DNA of 64,000 bases from assembly GCA_016861085.1 (NCBI GenBank), contig BOKR01000001.1:3271-67270 (forward strand). Reading direction: 5' to 3'. How positions within the stretch are numbered: position 1 is the stretch's first letter; each line of letters begins with the position of its first letter. Below the pieces are notes generated by a model that was not told where the DNA came from, did no database searches, and saw only the letters and a list, made by a program, of their open reading frames with translations. Positions 1,515 through 22,234 of this stretch are shown piece after piece. The position numbers and the translations under genes are program-made. Source of the stretch: Patescibacteria group bacterium. GTDB taxonomy: Bacteria; Patescibacteriota; Microgenomatia; UBA1400; PJMF01.

Positions 1515-3557
1515 TTATTTTTGAGGTAGATCTCCAAATAACTCTTTATATATTTCACTGATATCTTTCATTATAGCGTTGAGTGTCTTTCTTTCCTGAG
1601 TTACATCAACTTCTTCAAAGCTTAGCTGTGAACCTTCACGATCCCAGAATAGCCCATTCTTAGTGACTTGAATTTGATACTTGTTTGGATCAAGGAATGA
1701 TTCATGGTACCCAAGCTTATTCGTGTTTACGATGGAAACAAGCTCGCCTTTTGAGGGATCACTAACTCTAATGATGGCATTTTGTATTGGTTCCTGGTTG
1801 ATTGTGGTAACAAAACCAGAAATAGCTGGTTTTTCAAATGAATGGACCAGTCGTTTGATGAGTAATATTCCGTAGAGCCCAAGCACTAAAAGATTAATCC
1901 AGGTAGGGTAGAAAAGTGTGATAATGACTGAGATAATAAATAATGGCCAAAATAAATCAGTAAATCTGATTTTTCTAATGATACTTCGCATCGTTTTTCC
2001 AAATGTCGGCTTATATTCGCCTTTTATTTTTTTGTCCATTGGAATCAAGAAGAGTTGTTGCCTTTTGCTCGATTTCACCTCAAATTCTTCACCTTTGTAG
2101 AATTCTTCAATTGTATAGTAGCTTGGTCTTTTCTTCTCTGTAGGGTAATTGTAGTCTTGATGGCTGACATGAATGACGTATTTACCAGTTGGTAGCTGAA
2201 TACCTTGATATATACCGTCAACATCTGTTACTGCAGTCTCAATCAGGCGTTCTGAAACGATATCTGTAGTTGAGGTAATAGTAAGTAAGGCAAATGAAAC
2301 AGGTTCATTTGTCTGTGAGTCAAAAACCATTCCTTGAGGCTCTTTTGGAGGAATAAGACCCAATGCCTGGAGAATCTTTAATATGATATCCCAAGAAAAC
2401 TGTTGACCAAGTTGTAGTAATAGTGTCAGGAAGCTAATAGCTGGAACGGCAGCAGTGGCCACAAGCACCCCAACAGGGGCAACCGCTTGTGTGGCTTGTT
2501 GCACTGCCTGACGAATCTCTTGAGGTATAGTGGCAATAATCTCAAGAATTGGTTCGGGTATGAAATCAGTAATTTGTTGTTTTACGATTTCAGCTATTTC
2601 TACAGGCGGTATGATTGGAATTTTTATGATAGGAGTTGGAATTGGTGTTCCGGGAGATGGGGTTTCTTCGGGTCCTGGGGTTATATCTGGGGTCGGAGGA
2701 ATAATAATAAACTCCTGAATAATCAAGATCTTTAAATTTGTAATAACACTTATATTCCCAGCTTCATCAGTCACAACAAAATTGAGTGTAATGACTTCGT
2801 CTCTTGGCAAGATTCCTAATTGAAAGGTCCAGCTGCCGTCAGGATTAATAGTAAAGTTAATGATTTGAGTACCTTGACCGGGTATTTGTATTGTAACTTG
2901 AACCGAAGCATTCGGTTCTCCAGTTCCTGTGAATACTGGTTCATTATCCTCGAGTTCAATTGGTTCTTCTGGTACAGAATTGATGTCCTGTGCAGAAATA
3001 TTTGTAGTATATGGTCCAATTGTTTGAATTACAAATTCTGGTGCAAGCGTATCTATGTAAAAATCCCAAACTGCGGACGTATTTGAATTGCCAGCTGCGT
3101 CATAAACCATGACATACCAGGTATGGTGGCCATCAGATAGTGGGTCGACTGGTACCAAGGTATATTGTCCAGACCCACTATCATAGGTTAGTGTGTATTC
3201 ACTATTACTTGTACTTGAGGTCGGGATTGGTCCGTACACTAGCAAACCGTTTATATAGAGTTCATAGTAATCGACTCCGACATTGTCGGTTGACTCCTGC
3301 CAAATAAAGCTGGGAGTAGAGTCGTTAATAATTGCTTCATCCTCTGGAGAAATCAAAAACGGGGCTGAGGGAGGCATTACGTCTGGGACGGTGGCAGTCA
3401 CAGTGCTATCTCTGGTCTTAGGATTTGTTGCGGCATCCTCACCAGGGCCAATACCGCCAGCTTGACCATAGATTTTTAAGGAAAAAGTTTGAAAGAAGGC
3501 AATAAAGAGAATGAATAGAACAATAACTCTAAAATTTTGAGTATATTTGTTTCTCAT
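1515..3557 (-). CDS. large surface/membrane protein (680 aa): N-terminal signal peptide, Ig/FN3-like beta-rich region, Pro-rich linker, two carboxypeptidase-regulatory-like (CarboxypepD_reg-type) beta-sandwich segments flanking TM helices
   Basis: N-terminal hydrophobic signal sequence. Pro/Thr/Ile-rich linker PPTPDITPGPEETPSPGTPIPTPI. Segments VTDVDGIYQGIQLPTGKYVIHVSHQDY and IRVSDPSKGELVSIVNTNKLGYHESFLDPNKYQIQV resemble carboxypeptidase regulatory-like domains. Internal TM helices. 1-nt overlap with the downstream gene indicates an operon. Confidence 0.55.
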   Translation of the reverse strand: MRNKYTQNFRVIVLFILFIAFFQTFSLKIYGQAGGIGPGEDAATNPKTRDSTVTATVPDVMPPSAPFLISPEDEAIINDSTPSFIWQESTDNVGVDYYELYINGLLVYGPIPTSSTSNSEYTLTYDSGSGQYTLVPVDPLSDGHHTWYVMVYDAAGNSNTSAVWDFYIDTLAPEFVIQTIGPYTTNISAQDINSVPEEPIELEDNEPVFTGTGEPNASVQVTIQIPGQGTQIINFTINPDGSWTFQLGILPRDEVITLNFVVTDEAGNISVITNLKILIIQEFIIIPPTPDITPGPEETPSPGTPIPTPIIKIPIIPPVEIAEIVKQQITDFIPEPILEIIATIPQEIRQAVQQATQAVAPVGVLVATAAVPAISFLTLLLQLGQQFSWDIILKILQALGLIPPKEPQGMVFDSQTNEPVSFALLTITSTTDIVSERLIETAVTDVDGIYQGIQLPTGKYVIHVSHQDYNYPTEKKRPSYYTIEEFYKGEEFEVKSSKRQQLFLIPMDKKIKGEYKPTFGKTMRSIIRKIRFTDLFWPLFIISVIITLFYPTWINLLVLGLYGILLIKRLVHSFEKPAISGFVTTINQEPIQNAIIRVSDPSKGELVSIVNTNKLGYHESFLDPNKYQIQVTKNGLFWDREGSQLSFEEVDVTQERKTLNAIMKDISEIYKELFGDLPQK

Positions 3558-4654
3558 TATTCATTTGATTGCATTTTTTCTATTTGTTCTTCTAATTCAG
3601 CAATTCTTTTTTCTTCTATGCTCTTTTTATGTTTCAAGTGTCTTTTCACAGCAAGTCCTGCAAGGAGCAGTCCAAGCAAAATAGTCATTACGGCGATTAT
3701 TACTTTGATCGGGAGTAACCAAAAACTCGTGTTGGTAACTACTATCGCGCCAGCAGAACCATAGCTCATTGTTAGTTTTGCTTTGTATAAACCCCAGCCC
3801 CAAACTCGATCCCACTGTCCGGTGAAATCTCTACTTGTAAGAGGGAAGATATTTTTTGGTTCTATTCCAATGGTTTCTACTTTTCTACCAAGGATGTCAT
3901 AGACTTCAACACTCATTTGAGGGGTAATATGAACGTCAGAGTTATTTTCTACAGTAAAGCCAAATGGAACTGGGCCATATTCACTAAACTTAGGGAACGA
4001 AAAATCACGAACATACGCTTCCTCATTTATTGGACCATCAACAATGACATAGAGTAGCGTGCCAACACGTTGGTTAATAGCGGTGTTAGAACCACCAGTA
4101 CTCGCTCTATTTCCTGGTTCGTGAAGCACCATTGCATAGTGGCCACCAGGGAGGGCGTCCTCAGGGATTTCTACTAAAACATTAATGCCCGCGGTGGATT
4201 TTGATCCAATTGTATGTTCAGTTGGGGTTATTGTGAGCCACGAAGCTAGACTCCAACGGTTTGAAGTAGCATCGTCTATTGGAACGGGAGTTTCACCATC
4301 ACTATCCAAGACAAAGTCTTGGGCTGAAGTAATCACTGAGATTGGTTGTTCCGAAATGTTCCTCACTCTGAGCTGAATTTGCAGTTTTTCTCCTGGAGCA
4401 GCTTTGAGTGACCCATCATCACCAAGTCTAGGAGGAATTGCGGTTAAGGCAATTTCTTTTTGAGGAGAATCTGCTGTCTCACTTATGAGTTCTGGTATTG
4501 GCTGAGATTCATCTGAGGTTACTGTATTTGGAATAAATGGATTACTTACTGATTGGGCAAAGGCTCCTGGATTAAGACTCAGAAAGACAGTGGAGATAGC
4601 AATAAAGCCAGTCGTAATAATAATTTTGTGTTTTTTGATTTGGGCAGTATTCAT
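3557..4654 (-). CDS. secreted, C-terminally membrane-anchored beta-sandwich protein (365 aa), DUF916/WxL-interacting-protein-like architecture
   Basis: Signal peptide, beta-rich ectodomain, C-terminal TM helix (VIIAVMTILLGLLLAGLAV), then a short charged coiled-coil tail. Same architecture as the 322-aa protein two genes upstream. Confidence 0.5.
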   Translation of the reverse strand: MNTAQIKKHKIIITTGFIAISTVFLSLNPGAFAQSVSNPFIPNTVTSDESQPIPELISETADSPQKEIALTAIPPRLGDDGSLKAAPGEKLQIQLRVRNISEQPISVITSAQDFVLDSDGETPVPIDDATSNRWSLASWLTITPTEHTIGSKSTAGINVLVEIPEDALPGGHYAMVLHEPGNRASTGGSNTAINQRVGTLLYVIVDGPINEEAYVRDFSFPKFSEYGPVPFGFTVENNSDVHITPQMSVEVYDILGRKVETIGIEPKNIFPLTSRDFTGQWDRVWGWGLYKAKLTMSYGSAGAIVVTNTSFWLLPIKVIIAVMTILLGLLLAGLAVKRHLKHKKSIEEKRIAELEEQIEKMQSNE

Positions 4655-4666
4655 GTAGATCCCTCT

Positions 4667-6151
4667 TTAAAAAGTTGCTGTTGCTGTATAAATTACGTGG
4701 TTTTCGTAGTCTCCGGCTGCTTGTGTTGCAGAGATAATCGCTCTATAGCAGACATATAAGTTGTGATCGCTGGCAACAGTAGTTGAAGAAAAGATTTGTT
4801 GGGCAGCTTGGCTATCTTCAGAGTCTGCAAATTGTCTTGCACAATATGTGCCACCAGAACAGTTTCCTGAAGTAGTGTCGTATTCAAAGACTGGTGTCAA
4901 TCCAGTTGCATTCACATTATCGAGTGAAAATCCAAACCCCTTAAATGTTGTCGAATCCCATCGGTCAGAAGCAGTATGACTCATTGCAGCATTGTTCCCT
5001 GTGGAGTCTGGGATACAATCAGCCCCAGTGTTGTCTCCAGTACAAACAGCAGCATTTCTTCCCAGTTGATCATTAGCTCTTACTGTAACTGCATAGCCAT
5101 TAGTAGCGTTTGTTGAAACTGCTAATGCCTGAGCTGCATCAGTGAAAGCAGAGATAGAAAGTTCTCCAAGTGGTACGCCAGCTGCGGTTGTAGTTACATC
5201 TGTGGTAACGCCACAAGCAGTGATGCCAGAAGCAATTCCACTAATTTGGAACGTAATTTGTGGTGCTACAGATGCTGTCACGCGAACAGCCTCGACTACA
5301 CCAATGGATGCCGTAGTTGAATCTTGAGCTGAATAGCTACTATTTAAATGCTGGACAATAATCCTGTATGTATCAGCAAGACCAGTGGTATGAGCAACTT
5401 TTGGTGCAGGGTTAATGAGGTCATTGATAACGATTGCGTCGTTTGTGGTTCCATCAAAAGGAGTGCCAATTGCACCGGCCCCCGAATAACGACATTCAAA
5501 CGCATGATAATCTTGTGAACCAATAGTTATTGCAGATGCTGAAGCGGTACCAGCTACAAAATCGTATCCAGTTAGATCGGTTGGGCAAGTAACTGTTGGA
5601 GCAGAGTTGCTGAAATCAAAATTGCCTGCATCTGGTAATCCGTCTTGAGAGTCGGCATCGTTGCTAACTGAAGGTACCAAAATTCTGATAGCTCCATTGG
5701 CAATAGCATTGGCTGTAGTGAAGCGGACAGTTTGTGTTGCTGATCGTGTCGCGATTACAATATCACCAGCTTCTGTATCTCCAGAAGCAAGTACGGGCGT
5801 AACATTGAATGTTGAAGCACTATCTATACTGGTAATTGAGTAGGTAGAGATTGTACTGCCATTACCGATACCAACGTCATCATCTGTTCCATCTGCACTG
5901 ACTAATTGTGCAGATGTAGTAGAAGGCCAATCGCCTGTGGTTGTGTCGATAATGACTTGAGAGGAGCCAACAGTGTTGCCGGCAGCAAGTGCACCACTAA
6001 AGGAGAGCTGAGAGTTTGAAAGAGTTACAGAAACGTTTGTTAAGCTTGCAGATTGGCTTTTTTGATAAGCTCCAGCCATTGCAATTCCTACGAATACAAA
6101 TGCAGCAGTAACTATTTTTTTTGTTGTGGTTTTAGAAAAAGATTCTCTCAT
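4667..6151 (-). CDS. secreted Thr/Ser/Gly/Ala-rich surface protein (494 aa), candidate major surface/S-layer- or fibre-like subunit
   Basis: N-terminal signal/TM segment. Low-complexity T/S/G/A-rich composition with scattered Cys pairs. C-terminus ends in alternating hydrophobic residues and a terminal Phe (…HVIYTATATF). Confidence 0.5.
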   Translation of the reverse strand: MRESFSKTTTKKIVTAAFVFVGIAMAGAYQKSQSASLTNVSVTLSNSQLSFSGALAAGNTVGSSQVIIDTTTGDWPSTTSAQLVSADGTDDDVGIGNGSTISTYSITSIDSASTFNVTPVLASGDTEAGDIVIATRSATQTVRFTTANAIANGAIRILVPSVSNDADSQDGLPDAGNFDFSNSAPTVTCPTDLTGYDFVAGTASASAITIGSQDYHAFECRYSGAGAIGTPFDGTTNDAIVINDLINPAPKVAHTTGLADTYRIIVQHLNSSYSAQDSTTASIGVVEAVRVTASVAPQITFQISGIASGITACGVTTDVTTTAAGVPLGELSISAFTDAAQALAVSTNATNGYAVTVRANDQLGRNAAVCTGDNTGADCIPDSTGNNAAMSHTASDRWDSTTFKGFGFSLDNVNATGLTPVFEYDTTSGNCSGGTYCARQFADSEDSQAAQQIFSSTTVASDHNLYVCYRAIISATQAAGDYENHVIYTATATF

Positions 6152-6276
6152 TTTTGGCTTTATAACAATCTTTTTTTTAGCCGTTTTTTCTCGTTTTAGA
6201 AATGATAAAAAACGGAAGATTTTCTCCTAAAATTAATAATATATACTTTATACGGCATATGCAATACGCAAAGAAG

Positions 6277-7245
6277 CTATAAGCTACTCATTTTTGGTTT
6301 TTGTTTGGATAAAAAGTAAAAAAGAGCGATTCCCAACAAGAGTGCAGCAAGAATTGCAATCGGAAGAGCATAGAAAACGTGAACTGATTGCGTAATTACA
6401 GTTCCATCTTGACCAGTCAGAGTCAAAACGATTTGGTACGGTCCGATGAGAAATTTTGGTTTGTAAGCAAGTGAACCCACTTCAGGCTTTTGTGGATCAG
6501 AATTTGAAAGTAAAGCGCGAATTTCTCTAGAGTTGTGCCCTAAAATAGTGTCGGGGTACACGTCAAACTCTACAATCGTTTGTTTGCGCCAATTCACAAT
6601 TTTGGCACTTCCTGAAGCTACAACAGCCCCCAAACTATTATTTTTAACCAAGGGTGAAAATTCGATTTGTTGAAAACTATCAACAAATTTTGGTGCGTTT
6701 ATGTTGAGCACTTCTAACGTTTTTGTGAAACTGTTTTGTTTTGACACCAGAACTATAAGATTACTACCAATTGCAGCATTGATTTGAGAGTTTGATTTTT
6801 GACTATTTTGCTGAAAATTTTGAGCTTTCTCTTGTTCTGATTTTGAAAAAAAGAGGACCGTAAGTGGATACTCTTTTTCTTGAGCTTCATGAGGAACAGA
6901 AATATACAGGGTGAGTTGTGCCTTTTTATTGGGTGGTATGGTTACTTCTTTGACAGAATTATCAACTCCCATAGAAACATAGGGGAAAGTGAGTTGGTTT
7001 GTGACAATAGCTCGACCGGTTTTGCCGTCAGTAGTAAAGTCTACTATGGTTGGCAAAACCGTTATTGGAGTTTCACCACTATTTTCAAGAATGATTGTAT
7101 GATTTGCTGAGGTTCCTGGGGCTACATGCAGGTAAGAAACAGGGGGTGAGACCGTCAAGTTAACTTCTGAAGCCTGCGCCAACACTTGGTTTAGACCAAG
7201 TGTGAGTAAAAATGTGCATGTAATAAGTAAGGGTAGTCGCTTCAT
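6277..7245 (-). CDS. secreted, C-terminally membrane-anchored protein (322 aa), DUF916/DUF3324-like (WxL-interacting-protein-like) architecture
   Basis: Signal peptide MKRLPLLITCTFLLTLGLNQVLAQA. Beta-sandwich-like ectodomain. C-terminal TM helix LPIAILAALLLGIALFYFL followed by a short basic tail. Confidence 0.5.
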   Translation of the reverse strand: MKRLPLLITCTFLLTLGLNQVLAQASEVNLTVSPPVSYLHVAPGTSANHTIILENSGETPITVLPTIVDFTTDGKTGRAIVTNQLTFPYVSMGVDNSVKEVTIPPNKKAQLTLYISVPHEAQEKEYPLTVLFFSKSEQEKAQNFQQNSQKSNSQINAAIGSNLIVLVSKQNSFTKTLEVLNINAPKFVDSFQQIEFSPLVKNNSLGAVVASGSAKIVNWRKQTIVEFDVYPDTILGHNSREIRALLSNSDPQKPEVGSLAYKPKFLIGPYQIVLTLTGQDGTVITQSVHVFYALPIAILAALLLGIALFYFLSKQKPKMSSL

Positions 7246-7248
7246 AGG

Positions 7249-7980
7249 TTAAAATCCTGGCACTGCTACATAAACAACTGCAGTCTCATAATTACCACTA
7301 GCTTGGCTACTCCCTATGCCTGCCTTGTAGGTAACTGTTGATTGGCGGGCATTGGCGATATTGCTTGAACTCATTACAACCTGCATTGCTTCTGCTGCCT
7401 CATTATTGGCAAAACTTTTGAAATAAGTGCTGTTGATAAAATGTGCAGGAATATCATTGCCAGTCATATTGTAGCCAAATCCGGCAACTGATTGATTTGT
7501 CCATATTCCTGCGGTTGTATGAGTACAAGTTCCAGCATCACAGGTAGTGTTTGGTATTTCTTCAGAACCTTCAAGTTGCCTGAGTGGATGTAATTCGTAT
7601 GCATATACAGAATATCCTCCAGCCCCTTGTGTAGTAATGGTAAGGGTATGAGAATCAGTTTCATGGGTTTGTTCAGCTAACTCACCAAAGTCGATGAGAG
7701 TTTTTGAGATTTGAAAACGAAAGGTATCTATCTGATAAATATACTGAAAACCAGATCCAACAAAATAGGTTGATCCGCCATATGAACCATAAGGACCAGA
7801 TCCGGTTTGTCCAACAGTATCTGTAACATTGTAGGATGTGCTGCTTTTTTCTCCTGAAGTCACATTGAAATTGCCAAAAGTAATAACATACGAATCAGAC
7901 TCCAGTCGTTCGGCATGCGCTAATTTGAAGCCCAAAAGAAAAAGGGAACAAGTGGTAAAAATGATCAGTGCTTTTCTCAC
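7249..7980 (-). CDS. secreted protein (243 aa), Gly/Ser/Thr-rich
   Basis: Signal peptide MRKALIIFTTCSLFLLGFKLAHA. C-terminus …VVYVAVPGF with terminal Phe. 4-bp overlap with the upstream membrane protein gene. Confidence 0.5.
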   Translation of the reverse strand: MRKALIIFTTCSLFLLGFKLAHAERLESDSYVITFGNFNVTSGEKSSTSYNVTDTVGQTGSGPYGSYGGSTYFVGSGFQYIYQIDTFRFQISKTLIDFGELAEQTHETDSHTLTITTQGAGGYSVYAYELHPLRQLEGSEEIPNTTCDAGTCTHTTAGIWTNQSVAGFGYNMTGNDIPAHFINSTYFKSFANNEAAEAMQVVMSSSNIANARQSTVTYKAGIGSSQASGNYETAVVYVAVPGF

Positions 7981-8705
7981 GATTCAAGTTTATTTTCAGT
8001 TTTTTTTGTACGAGGATCTATTTTTGATGATTCTATAACTTTTTGGCTTTCGGAACTAAGTAATGTAATTTGTGTTTCTAAAATGTGTGGGTCAATCGGT
8101 TCGCCACGATGAATCGATGTTTCAAGCAAATCTCTTAGTATGAGTAACTTTGGTTGCAGGAAATTGACGATAAAGCCCTCAATTGTTTGTTCTTTGTATT
8201 CAAGTGAATTTAATGCTTGCTCTTCAGTCTGTAAAACTTTTTGTTGTATTCGTGAATCGTCATATTGTCTTCTAGCGAAAAGAAAAAATAACAGCATCAT
8301 GGGGAGAGTCATAAATGCAGCTATACTGACTGAAGTTGGTATTGGTTCGATTGCATAGTGAACCAACATTGTGGCTAAGGTAGCAACCACAGCAGTACTT
8401 TGTCTGGTTGTCATGACCAAAAAAAATAAATGAATGTATGCGAATGGATAAAACAGAGACTGCGAATTTCCTGTTGAACCTATGAGTAGAACAACAGCAA
8501 AAGAGACAAACACAATTTCAATGGAATGTGCTTTGGGTAGGATGTGCCAAAGTTTACCACCATAGATTCGTTTTGTAATAAAAAATCCTAAAGTAGCCAC
8601 AGCAAAGGCTTGCAACGAATAATAGGAAAGGGCTGGAGTAGTAAGCCAGATATAGGCAAGGCAAATAGCTAATAAAACGGCAAGCGTGTGTTTGATTGAA
8701 GACAT
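7977..8705 (-). CDS. integral membrane protein (242 aa), about 4 TM helices plus C-terminal cytoplasmic coiled-coil domain; first gene of the surface-protein operon
   Basis: Multiple hydrophobic helices in the N-terminal 150 aa; charged C-terminal domain. A promoter region lies upstream (8706-8760). Confidence 0.5.
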   Translation of the reverse strand: MSSIKHTLAVLLAICLAYIWLTTPALSYYSLQAFAVATLGFFITKRIYGGKLWHILPKAHSIEIVFVSFAVVLLIGSTGNSQSLFYPFAYIHLFFLVMTTRQSTAVVATLATMLVHYAIEPIPTSVSIAAFMTLPMMLLFFLFARRQYDDSRIQQKVLQTEEQALNSLEYKEQTIEGFIVNFLQPKLLILRDLLETSIHRGEPIDPHILETQITLLSSESQKVIESSKIDPRTKKTENKLES

Positions 8706-8760
8706 ATGACTTTCTCTTTCCAGTATACCTCAATTTGTGATCGAAAATAATTATCTATGC

Positions 8761-8963
8761 TATAATGCCTCTATGTTGCAAAAAGTCTCAAACAAACTTC
8801 TTCTTACCTCTCAGGATTAAGGGGAGTTGTTTGCGTTTTAAAATCCCCTTACAAGAAGGGGTTTTTTTTCTTTCGGACCCGATCTTTTTCGTCAGAAAAA
8901 GTCGTAGGTACGAAAGAAGTAAGAGGTAACACTACATAGTAAAACAGGTACAATAGGGAGCAT
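8761..8963 (+). promoter_or_regulatory. leuS 5' leader: extended -10 promoter (TGcTATAAT at 8758-8766), terminator/antiterminator switch (hairpin 8844-8861 plus U-run; alternative pairing of 8817-8825 with 8844-8852), conserved about 50-nt downstream element (8868-8916) shared with the thrS leader
   Basis: Hairpin TCCCCTT-ACAAG-AAGGGG followed by 8 U. Upstream TTAAGGGGA is complementary to the hairpin's 5' arm. The 8868-8916 block is near-identical to 53694-53740. Confidence 0.5.
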
Positions 8964-11516
8964 ATGTTTAATCAAAACCAAATAGAAGAAAAGTGGCAGC
9001 AAATCTGGGAAAATAATCAACTGTTTCAGCAGAGTGCTGATTCAACTTCAGTCAAAGATAAGTTGTACTTGTTGTTTGCTTTTGCGTATCCTTCTGGGTC
9101 TGGATTACATGTTGGCCATGTTGAAAGCAAGACTGCTTTAGATATCTTAGCTAGATATTACAGAATGAAAGGGAAGGATGTTTTCTTTCCAGTTGGTTGG
9201 GATGCATTTGGGTTACCGGCGGAAAACTATGCTATTAAAACTGGAATTCACCCAAAAGTTACTACTAAAGATGCAATTATCACGTTTAGAAGACAAATTA
9301 AGCGAATTGGTATTTCATACGATTGGGCAAACGAGCTAGCAACCAATCATCCAGAATACTATAAATGGACACAATGGATTTTTATTCAGATGTTCAACAA
9401 AGGATTAGCATATCAAAAAAATGGTATGGTTAATTGGTGTCCGCAAGACCAAACCGTGCTCGCAAATGAACAGGTGGTTGAAGGCAGATGTGAGCGCTGT
9501 GATAGTCAAGTTGTTCAAAAAGAATTGAAGCAATGGTATTACAAAATTACTCAGTACCAAGAGGAGTTAATTACTGGACTAGATCAAGTTGATTGGCCTG
9601 AAGCCACCAAAGCGCAACAGTTAAATTGGATTGGTAAAAAGACCGGTATCGAAATAACATACAAAATTGCAGATACAGATAAAACGGTTACTTGTTTTAC
9701 TACAAGACCAGATACTAATTTTGGTGCCACATTCGTGGTGATTGCTCCAGAGCACCAGTTTGCCAAAGAAGTCGCGAAGAATAATACAACAGTTGCCGAC
9801 TATTTGGATGCAGCAAGCAAAAAAACAGAACTTGATAGACAGCAAGAGGGCAAAACAAAGACTGGAGCGTTTACTGGTTTTTATGCAATTAACCAGTTAA
9901 CTAACAAAAAAATGCCAATATGGGTGTCTGATTTTGTTTTGGGTGGTTTTGGAACTGGTGCTGTTGTTGGTGTTCCAGCCCATGATGTAAGAGATTTTGA
10001 ATTTTCTCAGTTCGTGAATTCACAAAGTGACAACAAAGCTGATGATGCAGAAAACGCAGATTCTCGAATCGAGGTAATCAGAGTCGTTGTTGGCAGTGAC
10101 GGTGACACTTCGGAAATTACCAAAGTGGAACAAGTGCAAGAAGAAACTGGTACGATGATTAATTCTGACTTCTTAAATGGCTTAGACATTCATGAAGCCA
10201 CACAAAAAATTATGGATTACTTGGAAGAGCAGGGCATGGGTAAACGGGTAACGACCTATCGACTACGTGATTGGCTGATTTCTAGACAGCGCTACTGGGG
10301 GACTCCAATTCCAATTGTGTACGATCCTGAAGGTAATCCACATCCTGTAAAACAGGAGTACTTACCTTGGGAGTTGCCAACGGATGTTGATTTTAAACCA
10401 ACCGGAGAATCACCACTGAAATCAAGCAAGGAATTTATTGAGAGAACACACAAGTATGTATCACAAGTTCATGCAGATTTAATTGCTGAAAAAGGATGGG
10501 ATTCCTCTGGAGAAGGTTGGACTCCAGAGTTTGATACAATGGATACTTTTGTTGATTCAAGTTGGTATTTTTTGCGTTACGTGGATTCAAGAAACAAAGA
10601 TGTTTTTGCCGATGTATCTCAATTGAAAGCGTGGCTGCCGGTCGATTTATACATGATTGGTCCAGAGCACATAGTGTTACATTTGTTGTACTCACGTTTC
10701 TTTACAAAGTTTTTGCGCGATGAAGGATACCTCCACTTTGATGAGCCGTTTATGAAGATGCGTCACCAAGGTATGATCTTGGGCCCAGACAACCGTAAAA
10801 TGAGTAAATCAAAAGGAAACGTCATCAATCCAGATGAAATTATTGAAAAGTTTGGTGCTGACACACTGCGAGTCTATGAAATGTTCATGGGTCCACTAGA
10901 AGCTGACAAGCCTTGGGATATTCGAGCGGTGATTGGAGTATATAAATTCTTACAACGTGTGTATAGCATGGTTAGTGAGAAAGATTTAGCAGAGTTTTCG
11001 CAGCAAGAAAAGACAAAAACAGAACAAAAACTACACCAACTGATTGCTAAGGCCACAGATGATATTCCAAAACTAAAATTCAATACTTCAATTGCCTTTA
11101 TGATGGAGTTTATGAATGTGTGGCAGGATGAGAGTAAAAAATATAGTAAAACACTTTCATCGGAAGACAAGATCAAGTTTATTAAGGTTCTAGCTCCGTT
11201 TGCTCCATTTATGGCTGAAGAGTTGTTTGAAATGGTAACTGGTCAGACCAGTGACAGTGACGACTACAACGGAGTTCACATCACTGTATGGCCTGAATTT
11301 GATCCAAATAAGGCTCAAAGTGACACTGTTATGATTCCCGTTCAGATAAATGGGAAGGTTCGCGCTCAGTTATCGGTTTCTGCAGAGACCGCAAGTGATC
11401 AACAAGTTGTTTTGAATCAAGCGATTGCACTCCCAGAGCTAAAAAAATATCTTGAAGGCAAAGAAATCAAAAAAAAGATTTATGTTGCTGGCAAGATTAT
11501 TTCGTTGGTTGTCTAA
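8964..11516 (+). CDS. leuS: leucyl-tRNA synthetase
   Basis: Class I aaRS motifs: P-S-G-x-LHVGH (HIGH) near the N-terminus, KMSKS (KMSKSKGN), CP1 editing motif TTRPDT. 850 aa. Confidence 0.95.
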   Translation: MFNQNQIEEKWQQIWENNQLFQQSADSTSVKDKLYLLFAFAYPSGSGLHVGHVESKTALDILARYYRMKGKDVFFPVGWDAFGLPAENYAIKTGIHPKVTTKDAIITFRRQIKRIGISYDWANELATNHPEYYKWTQWIFIQMFNKGLAYQKNGMVNWCPQDQTVLANEQVVEGRCERCDSQVVQKELKQWYYKITQYQEELITGLDQVDWPEATKAQQLNWIGKKTGIEITYKIADTDKTVTCFTTRPDTNFGATFVVIAPEHQFAKEVAKNNTTVADYLDAASKKTELDRQQEGKTKTGAFTGFYAINQLTNKKMPIWVSDFVLGGFGTGAVVGVPAHDVRDFEFSQFVNSQSDNKADDAENADSRIEVIRVVVGSDGDTSEITKVEQVQEETGTMINSDFLNGLDIHEATQKIMDYLEEQGMGKRVTTYRLRDWLISRQRYWGTPIPIVYDPEGNPHPVKQEYLPWELPTDVDFKPTGESPLKSSKEFIERTHKYVSQVHADLIAEKGWDSSGEGWTPEFDTMDTFVDSSWYFLRYVDSRNKDVFADVSQLKAWLPVDLYMIGPEHIVLHLLYSRFFTKFLRDEGYLHFDEPFMKMRHQGMILGPDNRKMSKSKGNVINPDEIIEKFGADTLRVYEMFMGPLEADKPWDIRAVIGVYKFLQRVYSMVSEKDLAEFSQQEKTKTEQKLHQLIAKATDDIPKLKFNTSIAFMMEFMNVWQDESKKYSKTLSSEDKIKFIKVLAPFAPFMAEELFEMVTGQTSDSDDYNGVHITVWPEFDPNKAQSDTVMIPVQINGKVRAQLSVSAETASDQQVVLNQAIALPELKKYLEGKEIKKKIYVAGKIISLVV

Positions 11517-11534
11517 AAATGCTAGAATGAGCAC

Positions 11535-11843
11535 ATGGCCGCCATTTCTGAAGAGTTTCAGCTCAAGATTTACAATGATAAAGGGTTGATTTTTGACGAC
11601 TTAGTTATTGCTGTGAGTGCTGAAAATGAAGTTGGACCTTTGAGTATTTTGTCTGGACATTCAAACTTTATTACTACGATTAATGGTTCGTTAGTAGAAG
11701 AAATGCTTTTTGCATATTTTAAAGATGGCACCACTAAAGGTTTTTTGCTTGAGTCTGGAGTGATAAAAGTATATGACAATATTGTTGAAGTCTATTTGGT
11801 TCTTGACCTAAATCTCGATATTCCAGAGGCTAAGCTCAGTTAG
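11535..11843 (+). CDS. atpC: F-type ATP synthase epsilon subunit, short form (102 aa, beta-sandwich domain only)
   Basis: LKIYNDKGLIFDDLVIAVSAENEVGPLSILSGHSNFITTINGSLVEE matches the epsilon N-terminal beta-sandwich (…GxxGILPGHAPLIT…). Lacks the usual C-terminal two-helix domain. Sits on the opposite strand to the rest of the atp operon, convergent with atpD (4-bp tail-to-tail overlap). Confidence 0.65.
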   Translation: MAAISEEFQLKIYNDKGLIFDDLVIAVSAENEVGPLSILSGHSNFITTINGSLVEEMLFAYFKDGTTKGFLLESGVIKVYDNIVEVYLVLDLNLDIPEAKLS

Positions 11844-13615
11844 GTTTTTTCATCTGTCATTTGGGTCGGGGAGTATGCTGCACCCATATTTTCTACTCTT
11901 TGAGGCTGGATGCCATGTTTTGTTTGTAATTCTGCCCCTTCAATTAGGAGAGCTTTGTATTTTTCCTCAATGTTCATGTCACGGTTTCTTGCCAACTCAA
12001 CTTCCTTTTGTTCTTCCTTTATCTTAGTAACTTCTTCTGGAGTTAACGTCATTGGTGGATGACTTGGATCAATTTCTATGTATGAGGTTCGTTTCTTTTT
12101 TTGAAATGGTAATTGGATTTTGAAGAGTGGTTTTTTTAAAGGAAAGGCTGGTTCAAGGTCTTGAGGTTTTACTGAAACAGGGGGTTCTTTGGGTTGTTCA
12201 GGCTGAACGACAGTCGTCTTAGTCGGTTCGGAAAGGATACTTTGGTCAATTTTTTCTATGTAGAGTAGTTTTTCGGGATCGATATTATCAAGTTTACCTG
12301 AAAGGATGATTTCAATATCATCAAGTGTTTGTCTATTTTGGGCGAACACCCCTTTTCTATTGGTTTGTGGTTCTGCCACAGTAAGGCTTTGAGTCATGTA
12401 GTTTTCAATCAAGATGGATCTTTTGTATACAGTCTGGTCTTCAATTGACAGCTCTGAAAGGCCAACGAGAGAAACAATTTTTTCGATATCTTTTGCTTGC
12501 TCCAAGATTTGCGTGCATTTTAAATAAAGTTCGAAATGTTTTTGACCAATCACCTCTGGATTAACTGCGGAGGAGTTTGATGCCAAAAGATCAATTGCAG
12601 GTAATCTCCCGGACTGGTAAATATCTCTAGAAAGCACTATATAACTGTCTAGATAATAAAGAGCGGAACGAACACTATAATCAAGTAAGTCATCTGAAGG
12701 TAAATAGATTGCTTCAATGCTAGTTATGTATGCTTCTGGAGTGGAAGTGAGCATTTCATGGAACGTACCAACTTCAGACGGGAGGGTAGGCTGATATCCA
12801 TCTTCAGAAGGGACAGCGTGCATCAAAGTTGAAAGTTCATATCCTGCCTGACTAAAACGATACATATTATCCATAAAAAACAGCACGTCAGTTCCATGAT
12901 CTCTGAAATCTTCGGCAACCGTAGCTGCAGCGTAAGCAGTCCTAAACCGCACAGCAGGATTTTCGCCCATTTGTCCAACAATCATGACTGTTTTATCAAG
13001 TACTTTTGATTCTGCAAGGTTTTCAAGCAGTTCATGGGCTTCTCTAGAACGCTCACCCACAGCGGCAAACACTGAGACACTTTCTTTATTTGCGTTACTG
13101 GCAACGACAACATTATGAATTAGTTCGGTAAGGAGAATTGTTTTTCCTAATCCAGCACCACCAACAAGTCCGATTTTGCTGCCTTTTAATACAGGTGTGA
13201 AGAAATCAATTGCTCTAATTCCAGTGGTCAAAATTTCTGAAGGAGTAATTGCTGAATCAACTTCAGTAGGTATGTGGGTATGTAACGATTTAAATCGTTT
13301 CGGTTTAAAATCTTTATTATCTTGGGCATTACCAAATACATCAATTGCTCGCCCGAGTACTTCTTTACCTACTGGAATCAGCAGATTTTGTTCAGTGTTT
13401 TCAACGATATCTCCTCTGGAAATTTCATTTTTTTTGTTCAAAATGAAACAGTAGTACGTTTGATTTTCTTGAGCAGAGGAGACGACTTCCAATTTGATTT
13501 CTGGGTTATTTTTAAGAACAAGAACATCAAAGATTGCTGGTTGTTGCAACAAGAACTCAACAATGGCAACATTGTCTTGGATAGCTATAATTTTACCTGT
13601 TTTTTTCATGACCAA
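11840..13615 (-). CDS. atpD: F-type ATP synthase beta subunit with about 120-aa C-terminal extension
   Basis: P-loop GLVGGAGLGKT, DELSEED-region-like acidic segment, strong F1-beta similarity throughout. 591 aa against about 470 typical. The extension has a Pro-rich linker then Lys/Glu-rich helices. Confidence 0.9.
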   Translation of the reverse strand: MVMKKTGKIIAIQDNVAIVEFLLQQPAIFDVLVLKNNPEIKLEVVSSAQENQTYYCFILNKKNEISRGDIVENTEQNLLIPVGKEVLGRAIDVFGNAQDNKDFKPKRFKSLHTHIPTEVDSAITPSEILTTGIRAIDFFTPVLKGSKIGLVGGAGLGKTILLTELIHNVVVASNANKESVSVFAAVGERSREAHELLENLAESKVLDKTVMIVGQMGENPAVRFRTAYAAATVAEDFRDHGTDVLFFMDNMYRFSQAGYELSTLMHAVPSEDGYQPTLPSEVGTFHEMLTSTPEAYITSIEAIYLPSDDLLDYSVRSALYYLDSYIVLSRDIYQSGRLPAIDLLASNSSAVNPEVIGQKHFELYLKCTQILEQAKDIEKIVSLVGLSELSIEDQTVYKRSILIENYMTQSLTVAEPQTNRKGVFAQNRQTLDDIEIILSGKLDNIDPEKLLYIEKIDQSILSEPTKTTVVQPEQPKEPPVSVKPQDLEPAFPLKKPLFKIQLPFQKKKRTSYIEIDPSHPPMTLTPEEVTKIKEEQKEVELARNRDMNIEEKYKALLIEGAELQTKHGIQPQRVENMGAAYSPTQMTDEKT

Positions 13616-14478
13616 AATCCCATTCCAGACAATCTGTTTCGCTGTTTTTTATTAGCTTTGTACTTCATTGTTTTTAGTTTTAATCTTTTAACTTTTTCCA
13701 TTTCGCTCTCAAGATTACTTTGCGTGTGTTGCAATGTTGCGATTCTTGAACCCAAATTTGCCAAGTGTGCTTCTTTGATTTTATGCTGAAACAAGTTTGA
13801 CATAATTTGCAGTTCAAAGAAATGAAGAATTTTTCTTTTATCTGGTTCAAAAAGGAAGTGTTTAGCTTCTTTTTTTTCAGTTTCTGTATCAAGAGTAAGT
13901 GAGAGATCACCCGAGATGGTTTCAATTTGAGGTTTTTGTTCCATTAAGGAGATATAGTATGGGTTATACACGTTGATCTGCTCGTAGTTAAGCAGATGCT
14001 TCATAAGGTCTATATTGCCTCGCAAGTCGGTGTTTTTTTCAGTTAAATTAAAATATGTATAGGTTTGACTTTCCGGAAAAAATTCTTTGAATAGCTTTTT
14101 TGCAGTTGCACCAACGACCACAAGGTCAGTTTCCCTGCCAGTTACACTTTGTTTGTAAAAACTAAGGGACTCTCTGTTTATGCTGGTTGAGAATTTTGTT
14201 TCAAAAGAAATAAAAACATCAACGGTTTTGCCATTTTTTGTGAGGGTAGAAAAGCTAATGACTTGCTTGTTGTTGGGATTAATCTTGATTAACCTTCTAA
14301 GATCTTGTTTGAGATCGACAAACGTATCAAGCAGTCCTTGGAAAAATTTGCGACTGTTGATGGTATTATCTCGGTTGAGTTTCATTTGATAGATTGTTAA
14401 CTTTTGATATGCAGAAAAAAAGTTACCAATGGTATCTAGTGAAGCTTCTTCTGATTGCAGTTGTTTTACACTTGGCAT
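13606..14478 (-). CDS. atpG: F-type ATP synthase gamma subunit (divergent)
   Basis: Sits between atpA and atpD with overlaps on both sides. 290 aa. N- and C-terminal helical segments resemble the gamma coiled coil (…RIATLQHTQSNLESEMEKVKRL…). Confidence 0.6.
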   Translation of the reverse strand: MPSVKQLQSEEASLDTIGNFFSAYQKLTIYQMKLNRDNTINSRKFFQGLLDTFVDLKQDLRRLIKINPNNKQVISFSTLTKNGKTVDVFISFETKFSTSINRESLSFYKQSVTGRETDLVVVGATAKKLFKEFFPESQTYTYFNLTEKNTDLRGNIDLMKHLLNYEQINVYNPYYISLMEQKPQIETISGDLSLTLDTETEKKEAKHFLFEPDKRKILHFFELQIMSNLFQHKIKEAHLANLGSRIATLQHTQSNLESEMEKVKRLKLKTMKYKANKKQRNRLSGMGFWS

Positions 14479-15944
14479 AGACCTAATAGGAATGGTTTAT
14501 TTTTTTCTACTGTAGCAAGCAAATCCTTGAGCGATTTCGAATTTTCAATGATTTGGTCTAAAGTTACCTGAACGTCTTTCTTACCGTAATTTTTGTTTAA
14601 CTCGAATTTACAGGTTGTAATTACATTTTTATGAGATCTTTCGAACCAATCTAGCCAGATCATTGCGAGCAGAATAATTTGAATATTGAGGGGAATACCG
14701 TTGCTTTGACTAAAAAAGTCGGTAAGAAATTCACCTTTTTGTAAGATTTTTTGACTCTGTTCACTAATTTCACTGCCTAAGTGAGTAAGATTTCTAGTTT
14801 TTTGATAGCTGGTAAGGAAACTCGTGATTCTGAGATTAATATCTCTTTGTAGAGGTGATTGTGTTTGTTTTCCCACACGAGTAACAGAGAGACTTGTGTT
14901 GATTGCTGGTCTAAATCCCTGGTTGAAGAGTCTTGGTTCAAAAAGTAGGTGACCATCAGTAATGGAGATCAGATTTGAGGCGACAAAGTCAGTTAAGTCG
15001 CTATTTACAGTCCTTACAACTGGTAAACAAGTCAATGAAATAACTTTTTTTGGGTCAGTTGGGTGAGCATATGTTCCGGCTCTTTCAAGTAGTTGGGCTT
15101 GAGTAAAGAAGATATCACCAGGGTAGGAGTCACGACCAGGAAATTTCTTTGCAAGCAAAGAAATTTCCCGATAAAACTCAGCTTGCGAAGTAAGATCGTC
15201 AATAACAAGCAATACATTTTCTCCTTGTGAAACAACGTATTCTGCGATAGTCATTGCAGAGAATGGAGTAATAACTATCGCACTAATAGAGTCCTTCGGA
15301 GTAGTTGCAACAATAACAACAGAATCTACTACTCCTTGTTTGATAAAAAACTCGTGGGCTTCTCTAATATCAGAAGTTTTTTTTGCTACCATTGCGTAGA
15401 CAACTTTATTTCCAAGTAATGCTTGTTTCACAGCGAGGTTTTTAGCAAACGCACTTTTTCCTGACTTTCTATCTCCAATGAGCAACTCGCGTTGACCCTC
15501 ACCAAGAGGAAGTAGCAAATCAGTGATGCTGAACCCTGTAATCAATTGTCTATTAACTCGCCTTCGTTGCGTTATACTAGCTGGTTCTTGGTAAATTTCG
15601 TTGTATATGAGTGCAGCAGTTGAAAGTTTTTTTCTGCTAGTCATAAGTAAATCTCCCATTGGAGAGAAGACTGAGCCAAAAATGTTTGGGCTAATAGGAA
15701 AAGAAAGCTGTTTTTTAGTTCGGTACAGTTTTAGACCAACCCTAACTGGTGTTTTTGAAAATACCATAAGTTTAATTTCATTAGCACTAAAAGAGAGGAT
15801 TTGCCCTAAACTTTGGTCCTCAAATACTACCATTTCTCCTGGATTTATATTTGAAAAACCTTGAGCTTTTACCAACGGATGTTGCACAGAGGTGACTTCT
15901 GCGTATTCGCTGGCATCAGTTTGGTATTGTTGTGTTTGTATCAT
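14466..15944 (-). CDS. atpA: F-type ATP synthase alpha subunit
   Basis: P-loop GDRKSGKS (alpha-type GDRQTGKT). 492 aa. Conserved F1-alpha core. Confidence 0.9.
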   Translation of the reverse strand: MIQTQQYQTDASEYAEVTSVQHPLVKAQGFSNINPGEMVVFEDQSLGQILSFSANEIKLMVFSKTPVRVGLKLYRTKKQLSFPISPNIFGSVFSPMGDLLMTSRKKLSTAALIYNEIYQEPASITQRRRVNRQLITGFSITDLLLPLGEGQRELLIGDRKSGKSAFAKNLAVKQALLGNKVVYAMVAKKTSDIREAHEFFIKQGVVDSVVIVATTPKDSISAIVITPFSAMTIAEYVVSQGENVLLVIDDLTSQAEFYREISLLAKKFPGRDSYPGDIFFTQAQLLERAGTYAHPTDPKKVISLTCLPVVRTVNSDLTDFVASNLISITDGHLLFEPRLFNQGFRPAINTSLSVTRVGKQTQSPLQRDINLRITSFLTSYQKTRNLTHLGSEISEQSQKILQKGEFLTDFFSQSNGIPLNIQIILLAMIWLDWFERSHKNVITTCKFELNKNYGKKDVQVTLDQIIENSKSLKDLLATVEKNKPFLLGLCQV

Positions 15945-16390
15945 TGTAGTACTGTGGTTTCTATAGATCGTTTATATGTTTTTCCTTGAAAATCAATTTG
16001 AACACTTAATGAGAGATCTTTGTTAAAGGCATATTCAATGATAGCTGTGGGATGTACTGTGGCACGGATTCTTGTAGCAAGTTGTTCGACCTGTTCTTGA
16101 GTGGGGGAATAGCAAAGCGTCAATTTTGCTATTGGTAGCTTCGTGATATAGTTTTGTAAATTTGTGATGGATGCTATAACTTCTGTGGGAGTTTTTATAT
16201 TTTGAAGTAAGGTTTCGAACAAAACAAAGAAACGTTCATGTAACTGTTTTTTAATTCTTTCTTGAATTTTTTTTGAGTCTTGAGTATATGCAAGTTCTTG
16301 CAGGACAGTAAGAGACTCAAGCAGGAGTGCTTTGTCTTCAACAGTGACAACTAGGTCACGCACTAATGATTCGAGTTCATTTTTGACCAT
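15941..16390 (-). CDS. atpH: F-type ATP synthase delta (OSCP) subunit, short
   Basis: Sits between atpF and atpA with 4-bp and 14-bp overlaps. Helical N-terminal domain; C-terminal …LSVQIDFQGKTYKRSIETTV resembles the delta C-terminus. 149 aa. Confidence 0.5.
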   Translation of the reverse strand: MVKNELESLVRDLVVTVEDKALLLESLTVLQELAYTQDSKKIQERIKKQLHERFFVLFETLLQNIKTPTEVIASITNLQNYITKLPIAKLTLCYSPTQEQVEQLATRIRATVHPTAIIEYAFNKDLSLSVQIDFQGKTYKRSIETTVLQ

Positions 16391-17021
16391 TTTTTGCCGT
16401 TTCTTCTTGCCAAAGCTCGTTGATTAATTCTAGCGTTAGCTCATGCTTATCTAGAGTATGTAAAACTTTGCCTAAATATCTCTTTGCGACTTTGTTTACA
16501 AGTTGTTCGCTTTCTTTTGCTATCTTCTCAATTTGATCCTTTTTAAATGATTCAATCTCCCTTTGGGCGGATTGAGATTCAATTACTAACACATTAGAAA
16601 CTTTCTGCTGTAGTTCTACTACAGTTTTTTGTAGTAAAGTGCCGAGGTTTTTGATTTCTACTTCTGTTGCCTTAATTAAATCTTCTGACGATTTTTTAGC
16701 ATGGTCTTGAAGGAGAGTTTTTTGTTGTTCAACGATTTCATCAGTGATATCGTCAATTCTTTGATGTAGCTTTAAAGTGAAGTTTTGCACTTCTGAGTGA
16801 ACGTCATGATATTGGTCAAGGGTTTTTGAGATAATTTCTTGGGATTCACTTCTAGTAGCTGAAACCACTCTATCAAGCTGTTGCTTAATGTGTTCAAACT
16901 CTTTTTTGTAGTCTTCATCCATTTTTTCTATTCTTTTTTTATCAGCGCGCAACTTGTAAGCAATGATGAGTTCAAGAACGAGTCCTAAGATGACTATAGC
17001 TAATAAGTTATACGTTTGCAT
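16377..17021 (-). CDS. atpF: F-type ATP synthase subunit b
   Basis: Single N-terminal TM helix (LLAIVILGLVLELIIAY) followed by a long charged coiled coil. Position immediately upstream of atpH. Confidence 0.6.
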   Translation of the reverse strand: MQTYNLLAIVILGLVLELIIAYKLRADKKRIEKMDEDYKKEFEHIKQQLDRVVSATRSESQEIISKTLDQYHDVHSEVQNFTLKLHQRIDDITDEIVEQQKTLLQDHAKKSSEDLIKATEVEIKNLGTLLQKTVVELQQKVSNVLVIESQSAQREIESFKKDQIEKIAKESEQLVNKVAKRYLGKVLHTLDKHELTLELINELWQEETAKNGQK

Positions 17022-17031
17022 ACTTCCTTTG

Positions 17032-17856: not shown

Positions 17857-18079
17857 GTATTCATTCTACAACTATCTTTCACTCGATGTAAATATAGATT
17901 ATTCAGTAATTTTTTGACATAAAAACACATCAAAGGGCATCTGTAAGAATTGAGTACAAAAGTTTGTTTTTGTATTTCAATTACATTCAACTTGAGGAAA
18001 TTTTGAGTAATAATATTGTTCTTAAGCATATTTTTATGCATATAAAAATTGCTATACGACAGTATTTTTCGCATATTGT

Positions 18080-22231: not shown

Positions 22232-22234
22232 CAA

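Follow-up and report, generated by a model that had tools for sequence, protein, structure and literature searches.

What does an operon of Sec-exported and membrane-anchored proteins build at the surface of the cell? The question is raised by positions 1515-8705 of a 64-kb stretch of DNA from an ultra-small Patescibacteria group bacterium (contig BOKR01000001.1; the whole stretch is referred to below as the window). The original prediction for this locus was a seven-gene module for a surface structure or for adhesion, with an architecture resembling that of WxL loci. Our map of the open reading frames (ORFs) of the minus strand shows six consecutive genes rather than seven, and the list given with the prediction likewise names six proteins. 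In the order of transcription, they encode proteins of 242, 243, 322, 494, 365 and 680 amino acids (aa), by which lengths they are referred to here. We put at about 70% the probability that this operon is the Microgenomatia version of the Pam pilus, the usher-less, chaperone-assisted pilus of the candidate phyla radiation (CPR) that is assembled by donor-strand exchange. The locus is most likely a divergent further example of a system that was published in 2026, and not a new kind of system.

The Pam system was described in Ca. Mycosynbacter amalyticus (Saccharimonadia), in whose filaments electron cryo-microscopy (cryo-EM) identified PamA (55 kDa) and PamB (39 kDa) (bioRxiv 10.64898/2026.03.03.709456, Troman et al.). 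The pam operon also encodes PamE, PamT, PamC, PamD and PamR, and it includes no usher. PamC and PamD are PapD/FimC-like chaperones with C-terminal transmembrane (TM) helices, which sit in the cytoplasmic membrane, no outer membrane being present; PamR is an RbmA-like anchor, and the tip protein PamT consists of the C-terminal domain only. The filament is helical and is held together by donor-strand exchange, with the linker strand of one subunit entering the C-terminal domain of its neighbour, and it is the donated linker and the groove of the C-terminal domain that are most conserved among the Pam pilins. Paired Cys residues were reported in the subunits. Homologues are confined to the CPR, mainly Saccharimonadia and Microgenomatia, those of Microgenomatia being found only via a language-model search, and the typical neighbours of pam operons are ATP synthase genes and a tail-fibre-like gene (bioRxiv 10.64898/2026.03.03.709456).

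A co-inherited operon with two pilin-like subunits

The 243-aa and 494-aa proteins are the pilin-like subunits of the operon. The sole specific NCBIfam match of both is NF058581 ("CPR_Pam_pilin_C, Pam pilus system pilin subunit"), a model of 148 positions with a curated cut-off of 55 bits. The 243-aa protein matches it at E 2.1e-8 (34.4 bits) over model positions 3-148 of 148, and the 494-aa protein at E 7.5e-7 (29.3 bits). The match recurs in all 21 members of the 243-aa family (best 3.4e-10) and in 16 of the 30 members of the 494-aa family (best 7.6e-8), while four of the 21 also match NF058579, the PamT model. When the two families are compared with each other, the C-terminal domain proves to be common to both (hhalign, 99.3%, E 2.4e-20).

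Neither protein has a TM helix, and both are rich in Thr, Ser, Gly and Ala (T 11.9, S 10.3 and G 10.3% in the 243-aa protein; T 13.6, S 11.3 and A 14% in the 494-aa protein). The 243-aa protein has a signal peptide with predicted cleavage between AHA and E, followed by a highly conserved Gly/Tyr/Asn-rich N-terminal region (about residues 23-85), which we take to be the donor-strand region, and by a Pam-pilin-type C-terminal domain (residues 93-243) with the invariant residues Cys147 and Cys152. In the 494-aa protein, a conserved linker (about residues 290-320) connects a variable N-terminal domain (about 35-290) with a C-terminal domain of the Pam-pilin type (about 324-494). Of the eight Cys residues, six are kept in at least 93% of family members, and the protein is a candidate for the PamA-like shaft subunit. 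The two sequences end in ...AVVYVAVPGF and ...HVIYTATATF, respectively. Thus the Thr/Ser/Gly-rich composition, the alternating hydrophobic residues and the terminal Phe had been correctly recognized from the start; this tail is the last strand of the Pam-pilin-type domain and not an outer-membrane beta-signal.

The pattern of conservation within the two families is similar to that reported for Pam pilins, with the highest values in the presumed donor strand and in the last strands. In the 243-aa family, residues 21-80 are the most conserved part (column conservation of 0.78-0.90), along with the last strand, which is near-invariant together with its C-terminal aromatic residue. An AlphaFold2 (AF2) model of the 243-aa protein, built from an alignment of 21 sequences, is well defined for residues 86-243 (predicted local distance difference test score, pLDDT, of about 80-87), and falls below 50 for residues 21-85. 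A segment that is conserved and yet unfolded in a model of the monomer would be an indirect signature of a donor strand. The 494-aa family has three peaks of conservation: the mature N-terminus, the linker together with the beginning of the C-terminal domain (about residues 281-360), and the C-terminus, where the terminal Phe is invariant.

The six genes are inherited together. Relatives were collected by scanning species-representative genomes for the 243-aa family, which gave 80 loci, and colinearity was determined by tblastn and ORF mapping at the 62 loci that have enough flanking sequence. All six genes are colinear, in the order 242-243-322-494-365-680, at 58 of these 62 loci, and at a further three the 242-aa homologue alone goes undetected. 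Protein identities in the colinear relatives go down to about 25-50%, so the conserved order cannot be attributed to chance, and the locus is indeed the dedicated, co-inherited surface module that had been proposed. In 75 of the 80 loci, the 242-aa gene is detected immediately before the 243-aa gene (median overlap, 4 nt), and the 680-aa gene is the last of the cluster in 66, most of the others being cut by contig ends. Divergently upstream of the operon lies leuS, the gene for leucyl-tRNA synthetase (LeuRS), in 62 of the 80. The 243-aa protein is conserved about as well as LeuRS (45-83% identity), while the other proteins fall to about 25-35%. A search with hidden Markov models (HMMs) finds exactly two pilin-like and two chaperone-like ORFs per locus, and the same numbers in the whole window. 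An exhaustive profile search (E <= 1e-3) returned 1173 clusters at 50% identity that are related to the 243-aa family, which is thus a large one.

Where the records of the relatives bear informative titles, these name Pacebacteria, Woesebacteria, Microgenomates or Patescibacteria. Many records are titled Pseudomonadales and one is titled TM6, in conflict with their CPR-type gene content, and we take these titles to be mislabelling. The latter record (CP011212.1, "candidate division TM6 bacterium GW2011_GWF2_28_16"; locus L053) has the full six-gene cluster.

Within the window, the genes are closely packed, and the overlaps that had been noted earlier are found between the 242-aa and 243-aa genes (4 nt) and between the 365-aa and 680-aa genes (1 nt). 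The 243-aa and 322-aa genes are separated by 3 nt, and the 494-aa and 365-aa genes by 12 nt. A hydropathy scan finds N-terminal hydrophobic, signal-like segments in five of the six proteins, that of the 494-aa protein being weaker. In agreement with the predicted absence of enzymes, Pfam and NCBIfam searches with the six proteins gave no enzyme family, and they gave no usher and no type IV pilus ATPase, platform or pilin family either. There is no LPxTG-like motif in the six proteins, and no ORF with a C-terminal LPXTG motif in the window. We count the conserved Cys residues of the secreted subunits and the lack of an LPXTG motif as extracellular features that favour the Pam pilus.

Chaperone-like proteins and the relation to WxL clusters

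The 322-aa and 365-aa proteins are full-length paralogues of each other (hhalign, 99.3%, E 7e-21). The former comprises a signal peptide, two beta-sandwich domains, a C-terminal TM helix (residues 294-312) and a short basic tail; the latter comprises a signal peptide, a disordered stretch of about 40 aa, beta-sandwich domains at residues 70-180 and 197-313, and a TM helix from residue 316 that is followed by a short, charged and basic cytoplasmic tail. The AF2 model of the 365-aa protein (mean pLDDT 80.5) shows the two beta-sandwich domains and a long C-terminal helix. Its best match in the PDB by Foldseek is the WxL-interacting protein (WxLIP) of E. faecium (9i1y/9i25; E ~1e-12, about 260 columns), the entry 9i25 being WxLIP bound to a long WxL protein. 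The next matches are the chaperones CfaA, CupB2, FimC, Caf1M, YadV, CsuC, DraB and SafB of chaperone-usher (CU) systems (E 1e-9 to 1e-7), after which comes RbmA. One of the pair could be PamR-like, given the similarity in fold between RbmA and the 365-aa model.

Sequence comparisons point to the same family. The Pfam family WxLIP_PGBD (DUF916) is matched weakly by the single proteins (365-aa, E 0.004; 322-aa, E 0.019), and by 24 of the 29 members of the 365-aa family, some of which are named DUF916 by NCBI; the 322-aa family also matches Pfam fn3_5 weakly. An alignment of Firmicutes WxLIPs was made from seven annotated proteins, the WxLIP and WxL genes used here being taken from plasmids of Enterococcus, Listeria and Lactococcus. 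Against it, the DUF916 part of the 365-aa family scores 96.3% in hhalign and that of the 322-aa family 97.4% (E 1e-11). The second domain of either protein has no match to DUF3324 by sequence. The NCBIfam models of Pam chaperones, sought with both families, gave noise only, and in three large protein searches the matches bore no names other than "hypothetical" or DUF916. BroJett025_00030 (Patescibacteria group bacterium) and the 365-aa protein have identical sequences. The two proteins really are WxLIP homologues, both in architecture and in family, as had been suggested. This homology is the one insight that our analysis adds to the Pam system, since the text of the Pam preprint mentions neither WxL nor DUF916.

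The homology also brings up an alternative to a filament, namely: a non-filamentous complex like that of the WxL clusters, in which the two WxLIP-like proteins would permanently hold the small and the large secreted protein by a beta-strand and thereby form an adhesion platform. A canonical WxL cluster encodes a small and a large protein with a common C-terminal WxL domain, plus a WxLIP that is predicted to insert a beta-hairpin into its WxL partner, and the resulting complexes are described as peptidoglycan-bound and not as filaments (PMC10599100, PMC9772566). The operon resembles these clusters, which are found in Firmicutes and are also known as Csc clusters, in several respects. The 322-aa and 365-aa proteins share with WxLIP the signal peptide, the two immunoglobulin (Ig)-like domains and the TM helix, and WxLIP, including 9i25, is their best structural and profile match. 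The layout of one small and one large secreted protein with a common C-terminal domain is likewise the canonical one (PMC10599100, PMC9772566). In addition, the ratio of pilin-like to chaperone-like genes is a fixed 2:2, and the high conservation of the 243-aa protein would suit a structural adaptor.

The secreted proteins, however, do not carry the WxL domain. None of 42 pilin-like sequences matches the Pfam WxL family at E <= 1, and hhalign comparisons with small, large and combined WxL alignments remain below 3%. The last strands resemble each other at the level of a motif only (GxYxxTLTWxL in WxL; GxYxNx(L/V)xYxx...F here), and this likeness is not significant. The 50 best fold matches of the 243-aa model do not include the entry 9i25, and the C-terminal domain of the subunits instead matches the Pam pilin model, whose family forms filaments that were solved by cryo-EM. 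Further differences from the WxL clusters are the lack of an LPXTG protein, which is common but not universal in them, the lack of a DUF3324 match in the second domain, the presence of two WxLIP-like genes as compared to one in the commonest WxL cluster, and a CPR rather than a Firmicutes host. We therefore consider a WxL-like complex, although it is the main rival of the pilus, unlikely; the WxL resemblance of the original prediction stands for the 322-aa and 365-aa proteins, and not for the subunits.

A broader scheme would connect the two systems. The Pam pili of the CPR and the WxL/Csc clusters of Firmicutes may be two branches of an ancient system of monoderm bacteria, in which an incomplete Ig-like secreted subunit would be completed by a strand from a WxLIP-type chaperone anchored in the membrane, with the 680-aa protein as the missing membrane base of the Microgenomatia fibre, a proposal to which we give a modest chance. 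One part of it, that the Pam "chaperones" are homologues of WxLIP, is supported by our results; the other part, a very distant homology of the WxL domain to the C-terminal domain of Pam pilins, is not supported by the profiles, the last strand alone being alike.

The strong fold matches of the 365-aa model to CU chaperones also bear on whether the operon encodes a classical pilus (chaperone-usher, sortase-dependent or type IV) that was missed because of sequence divergence. CU pili (Pap/Fim, CFA/I, Caf1, Csu) share with the operon the two-domain Ig-like fold of the chaperones and, presumably, an incomplete Ig-like subunit that is completed first by a strand of the chaperone and then by the neighbouring subunit, and the CU pilins FimG, FimF and CS20 are weak fold matches of the 243-aa model. 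However, no outer-membrane usher is detected in the operon, and the chaperone-like proteins are TM-anchored in the cytoplasmic membrane, as are the Pam chaperones of cells that have no outer membrane, rather than soluble in a periplasm. Unlike CU pilins, to which they have no detectable sequence similarity, the subunits carry an additional domain or region at the N-terminus, and the six proteins lack both an LPXTG motif and any Pfam or NCBIfam match to a type IV pilus ATPase, platform or pilin. A classical pilus is thus exceedingly improbable.

A proposed donor-strand-exchange fibre and its membrane components

If the operon is of the Pam type, its products would act in the following way. The Sec system would export the small 243-aa and the large, two-domain 494-aa subunit, each with a C-terminal domain that would be an incomplete Ig-like fold. 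The two membrane-tethered, two-domain chaperones of 322 and 365 aa (WxLIP/PapD fold) would keep these subunits on the outer side of the cytoplasmic membrane, and the subunits would then polymerise by donor-strand exchange, the conserved strand of one filling the groove of the next. Assembly would need neither usher nor ATPase nor sortase, and the product would be a thin, non-retractile fibre for reaching or adhering to a host or a surface. The 680-aa protein, with its Ig-like ectodomain, proline-rich stalk and three TM helices, would form the base or anchor.

The 680-aa protein begins with a signal or anchor segment and an acidic ectodomain with Big_7-like and Big_13 Ig domains, continues with a Pro-rich stalk (about 283-330), a TM helix (362-380), a CarboxypepD_reg domain (408-470), a K/R-rich loop and a TM hairpin (532-574), and has a second CarboxypepD_reg-like domain after the hairpin, which gives three TM helices in all. 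The Ig-like and carboxypeptidase-regulatory-like domains around TM segments, which had been proposed earlier, are borne out by Pfam (Big_13, E 4e-21; CarboxypepD_reg, E 2e-14, flanking TM segments), and they recur in 29 of 29 and 23 of 29 family members, respectively. Residues 30-361 contain 7 Lys plus Arg and 43 Asp plus Glu, whereas the loop at 495-531 contains 12 and 2; by the positive-inside rule, this basic loop places the CarboxypepD_reg domains in the cytoplasm. From this arrangement, we propose that the protein serves as the base or anchor of the fibre.

The long acidic Ig-like ectodomain of the 680-aa protein, together with the composition and acidity of the 494-aa protein, could also be thought to indicate an S-layer or envelope sheet, in which the acidic, Thr/Ser/Ala-rich 494-aa protein would form a two-dimensional lattice anchored by the membrane proteins. 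A few faint matches to NCBIfam models of the S-layer type (E 0.18; 0.035) go in the same direction. None of the S-layer family matches is significant, however, the specific and reproducible match being that to the Pam pilin C-terminal domain, and known S-layer loci are not marked by two chaperone-like proteins of the PapD/WxLIP fold. We regard an S-layer as very improbable. Of the S-layer-like, fibre or adhesin assembly that had been envisaged, the surface assembly holds and the S-layer does not, and in view of the NF058581 match, Pam-type pilus operon is the better name.

The 242-aa protein is polytopic, as had been stated, with about five to six hydrophobic segments, and ends in a helical cytoplasmic tail of about 95 aa. 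It has no Pfam, NCBIfam or PDB family; a KwaA match (E 0.14) and a Wzy_C match in one of 29 members were dismissed as noise. The protein is a conserved accessory of the operon.

How well, then, does the operon agree with the published Pam system? Like the latter, it is a CPR operon of Sec-exported proteins with two size classes of pilin-like subunits that share a C-terminal domain, probably a truncated Ig fold, whose matches to NF058581 are significant but lie below the curated cut-off, and with two PapD/FimC-like chaperones, each of which has a C-terminal TM helix. Sec signals are present, and there is no signal of an usher, ATPase or sortase. The subunits have conserved Cys residues, and both ATP synthase and tail-fibre-like genes lie near the operon in this window. 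It differs in having two pilin-like genes as compared to PamA, B, E and T, in the near-invariant Gly/Tyr/Asn-rich N-terminal region of its small subunit, and in two extra, strictly syntenic components, i.e. the 680-aa protein with Ig and CarboxypepD_reg domains and the polytopic 242-aa protein. The conserved neighbour in this clade is LeuRS and not ATP synthase.

Several observations weigh against a Pam pilus. Every match to NF058581 (34 and 29 bits here) is below the curated 55 bits, although the E-values are significant. With the AF2 model of the 243-aa protein, Foldseek finds no match in the PDB at E <= 0.001, the best being E 0.012, and PDB sequence searches with the pilin-like proteins, as single sequences and as profiles, gave nothing meaningful; PamA and PamB (25PZ/25QA) are unmatched in the PDB copies searched, being either missing there or undetectable. 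The operon has no separate PamR-like or PamT-like gene, and the text of the Pam preprint read here describes neither the 680-aa nor the 242-aa component. Only 5 of the 80 relatives have the ATP synthase genes adjacent. For a major pilin exposed at the surface, conservation on a par with that of LeuRS, as seen in the small subunit, is unusual. The likeness to PamA/B/C/D/R/T of M. amalyticus rests on the published description and on the NCBIfam models, and the filament is predicted here from the genes, none having been observed for this organism.

Coordinates, surroundings and implications

The features of the operon are listed in the table below. The 125-bp gap is the largest within the operon, and the median gap at this place in the relatives is 78 bp. 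It may be an internal promoter or a region that tunes expression. A hairpin within it is no more stable than expected from shuffled sequence (z -0.13). Eight relatives (L044, L045 and L073 among them) have additional DNA between their homologues of the 322-aa and 494-aa genes, in each case longer than 300 bp and at most about 1.7 kb, and the HMM search shows that the ORFs inserted there are neither pilin-like nor chaperone-like. The divergent region between the operon and leuS has one promoter-like match on the minus strand (8791-8762); the promoter-like matches in this region overall are not above the expectation from shuffling.

Table. Positions, within the 64-kb window, of the operon genes and of two intergenic regions.
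Feature	Position	Strand	Basis
242-aa polytopic membrane protein, first gene	7977-8705	-	ORF map, hydropathy
243-aa small pilin-like secreted subunit	7249-7980	-	ORF map, NF058581 match
322-aa membrane-anchored chaperone-like protein, WxLIP/PapD-like type	6277-7245	-	Paralogy, hhalign
AT-rich intergenic gap, 125 bp, directly upstream of the 494-aa gene	6152-6276	-	Sequence
494-aa large pilin-like secreted subunit	4667-6151	-	ORF map, NF058581 match
365-aa membrane-anchored chaperone-like protein, WxLIP/PapD-like type	3557-4654	-	AF2, Foldseek, Pfam
680-aa multi-domain membrane protein	1515-3557	-	Pfam, hydropathy
Divergent intergenic region between operon and leuS, presumed operon promoter region	8706-8963	.	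ORF map

Beyond LeuRS, the window contains an F-type ATP synthase operon (11535-17856), with the epsilon gene on the plus strand and the beta, gamma and alpha genes, as well as three ORFs without a family, on the minus strand. The beta-like subunit is 591 aa long, with a Pro/Lys/Glu-rich C-terminal extension of about 130-170 aa past the conserved domains. Further along, three large, consecutive plus-strand ORFs (18080-29718) encode proteins of 1383 aa, without a Pfam family, and of 512 and 1982 aa, both with Peptidase_S74, the tail-fibre-type domain of endosialidase intramolecular chaperones; the latter two occupy 22235-29718. These ORFs may be the "tail fibre-like" neighbours reported beside pam operons.

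On the other side of the operon, a plus-strand gene (68-685) encodes a 205-aa protein with a weak match (E 0.0012) to PaaX_M, the domain of the PaaX regulator that resembles Cas2. This gene, which is convergent with the operon, is found downstream of it in 46 of the 80 loci, and its product is a possible cognate regulator. Between it and the end of the 680-aa gene lies a convergent intergenic region of 830 bp (686-1514), and no further ORF of at least 64 aa is found in this region or in the 125-bp gap. A DNA element with its core at about 805-985 is recovered by nhmmer (E down to 1e-38) from 36 of the 80 loci, where it occupies the corresponding syntenic place; some of these loci are distant. 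Its TTCGGGT is invariant, and it also contains a box resembling TATAAT and, at a spacing of about 22 nt, three repeats of TGCRnTAAT, a motif for which the rest of the window shows no enrichment. Positions 757-765 match the DnaA box perfectly (TTATCCACA). A non-coding RNA is not supported for the element, with no Rfam match and no conserved RNA structure, and an oriC or dif site is unlikely since the GC skew shows no switch in 26 of 26 loci. The element may be a promoter/operator array, perhaps for the PaaX-like regulator.

At a variant locus that adjoins LeuRS (L081; positions 7082-20824, GCA_964426075.1, CAYROP010000006.1), one gene codes for a protein of 2559 aa, which contains several incomplete pilin-like repeats and ends in a complete domain of the 243-aa type. 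The locus further encodes two chaperone-like proteins, three pilin-like proteins, each about 350 aa long and ending in ...GTYTNTLTYTSYGIF, and a TM protein of 176 aa with a match to the linker region within the 680-aa protein. The distant representatives of the pilin family have no informative name or accession, and one distant member carries a Laminin_G_3 lectin domain. Such modular fusions of adhesin and subunit domains are in keeping with a system of pili or adhesins.

A large part of the diversity of bacteria belongs to the Patescibacteria, which seem to live attached to other cells. Organelles of attachment are therefore central to their biology, and the genes for attachment are almost all annotated as "hypothetical". 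The present finding overturns nothing established. It would show a Pam-type, usher-less pathway as a rigid six-gene cassette across a large clade of Microgenomatia. The components of the cassette, namely two subunits, two chaperone-like proteins and two membrane proteins that are unexplained, make a compact set for reference. The tie between the Pam chaperone-like proteins and WxLIP (DUF916) joins two separate literatures, and suggests work in tractable Enterococcus or Lactobacillus. If the Pam and WxL systems do share an ancestry, polymerisation may also occur among WxL proteins, or the chaperones of the Pam system may have a second role as permanent anchors.

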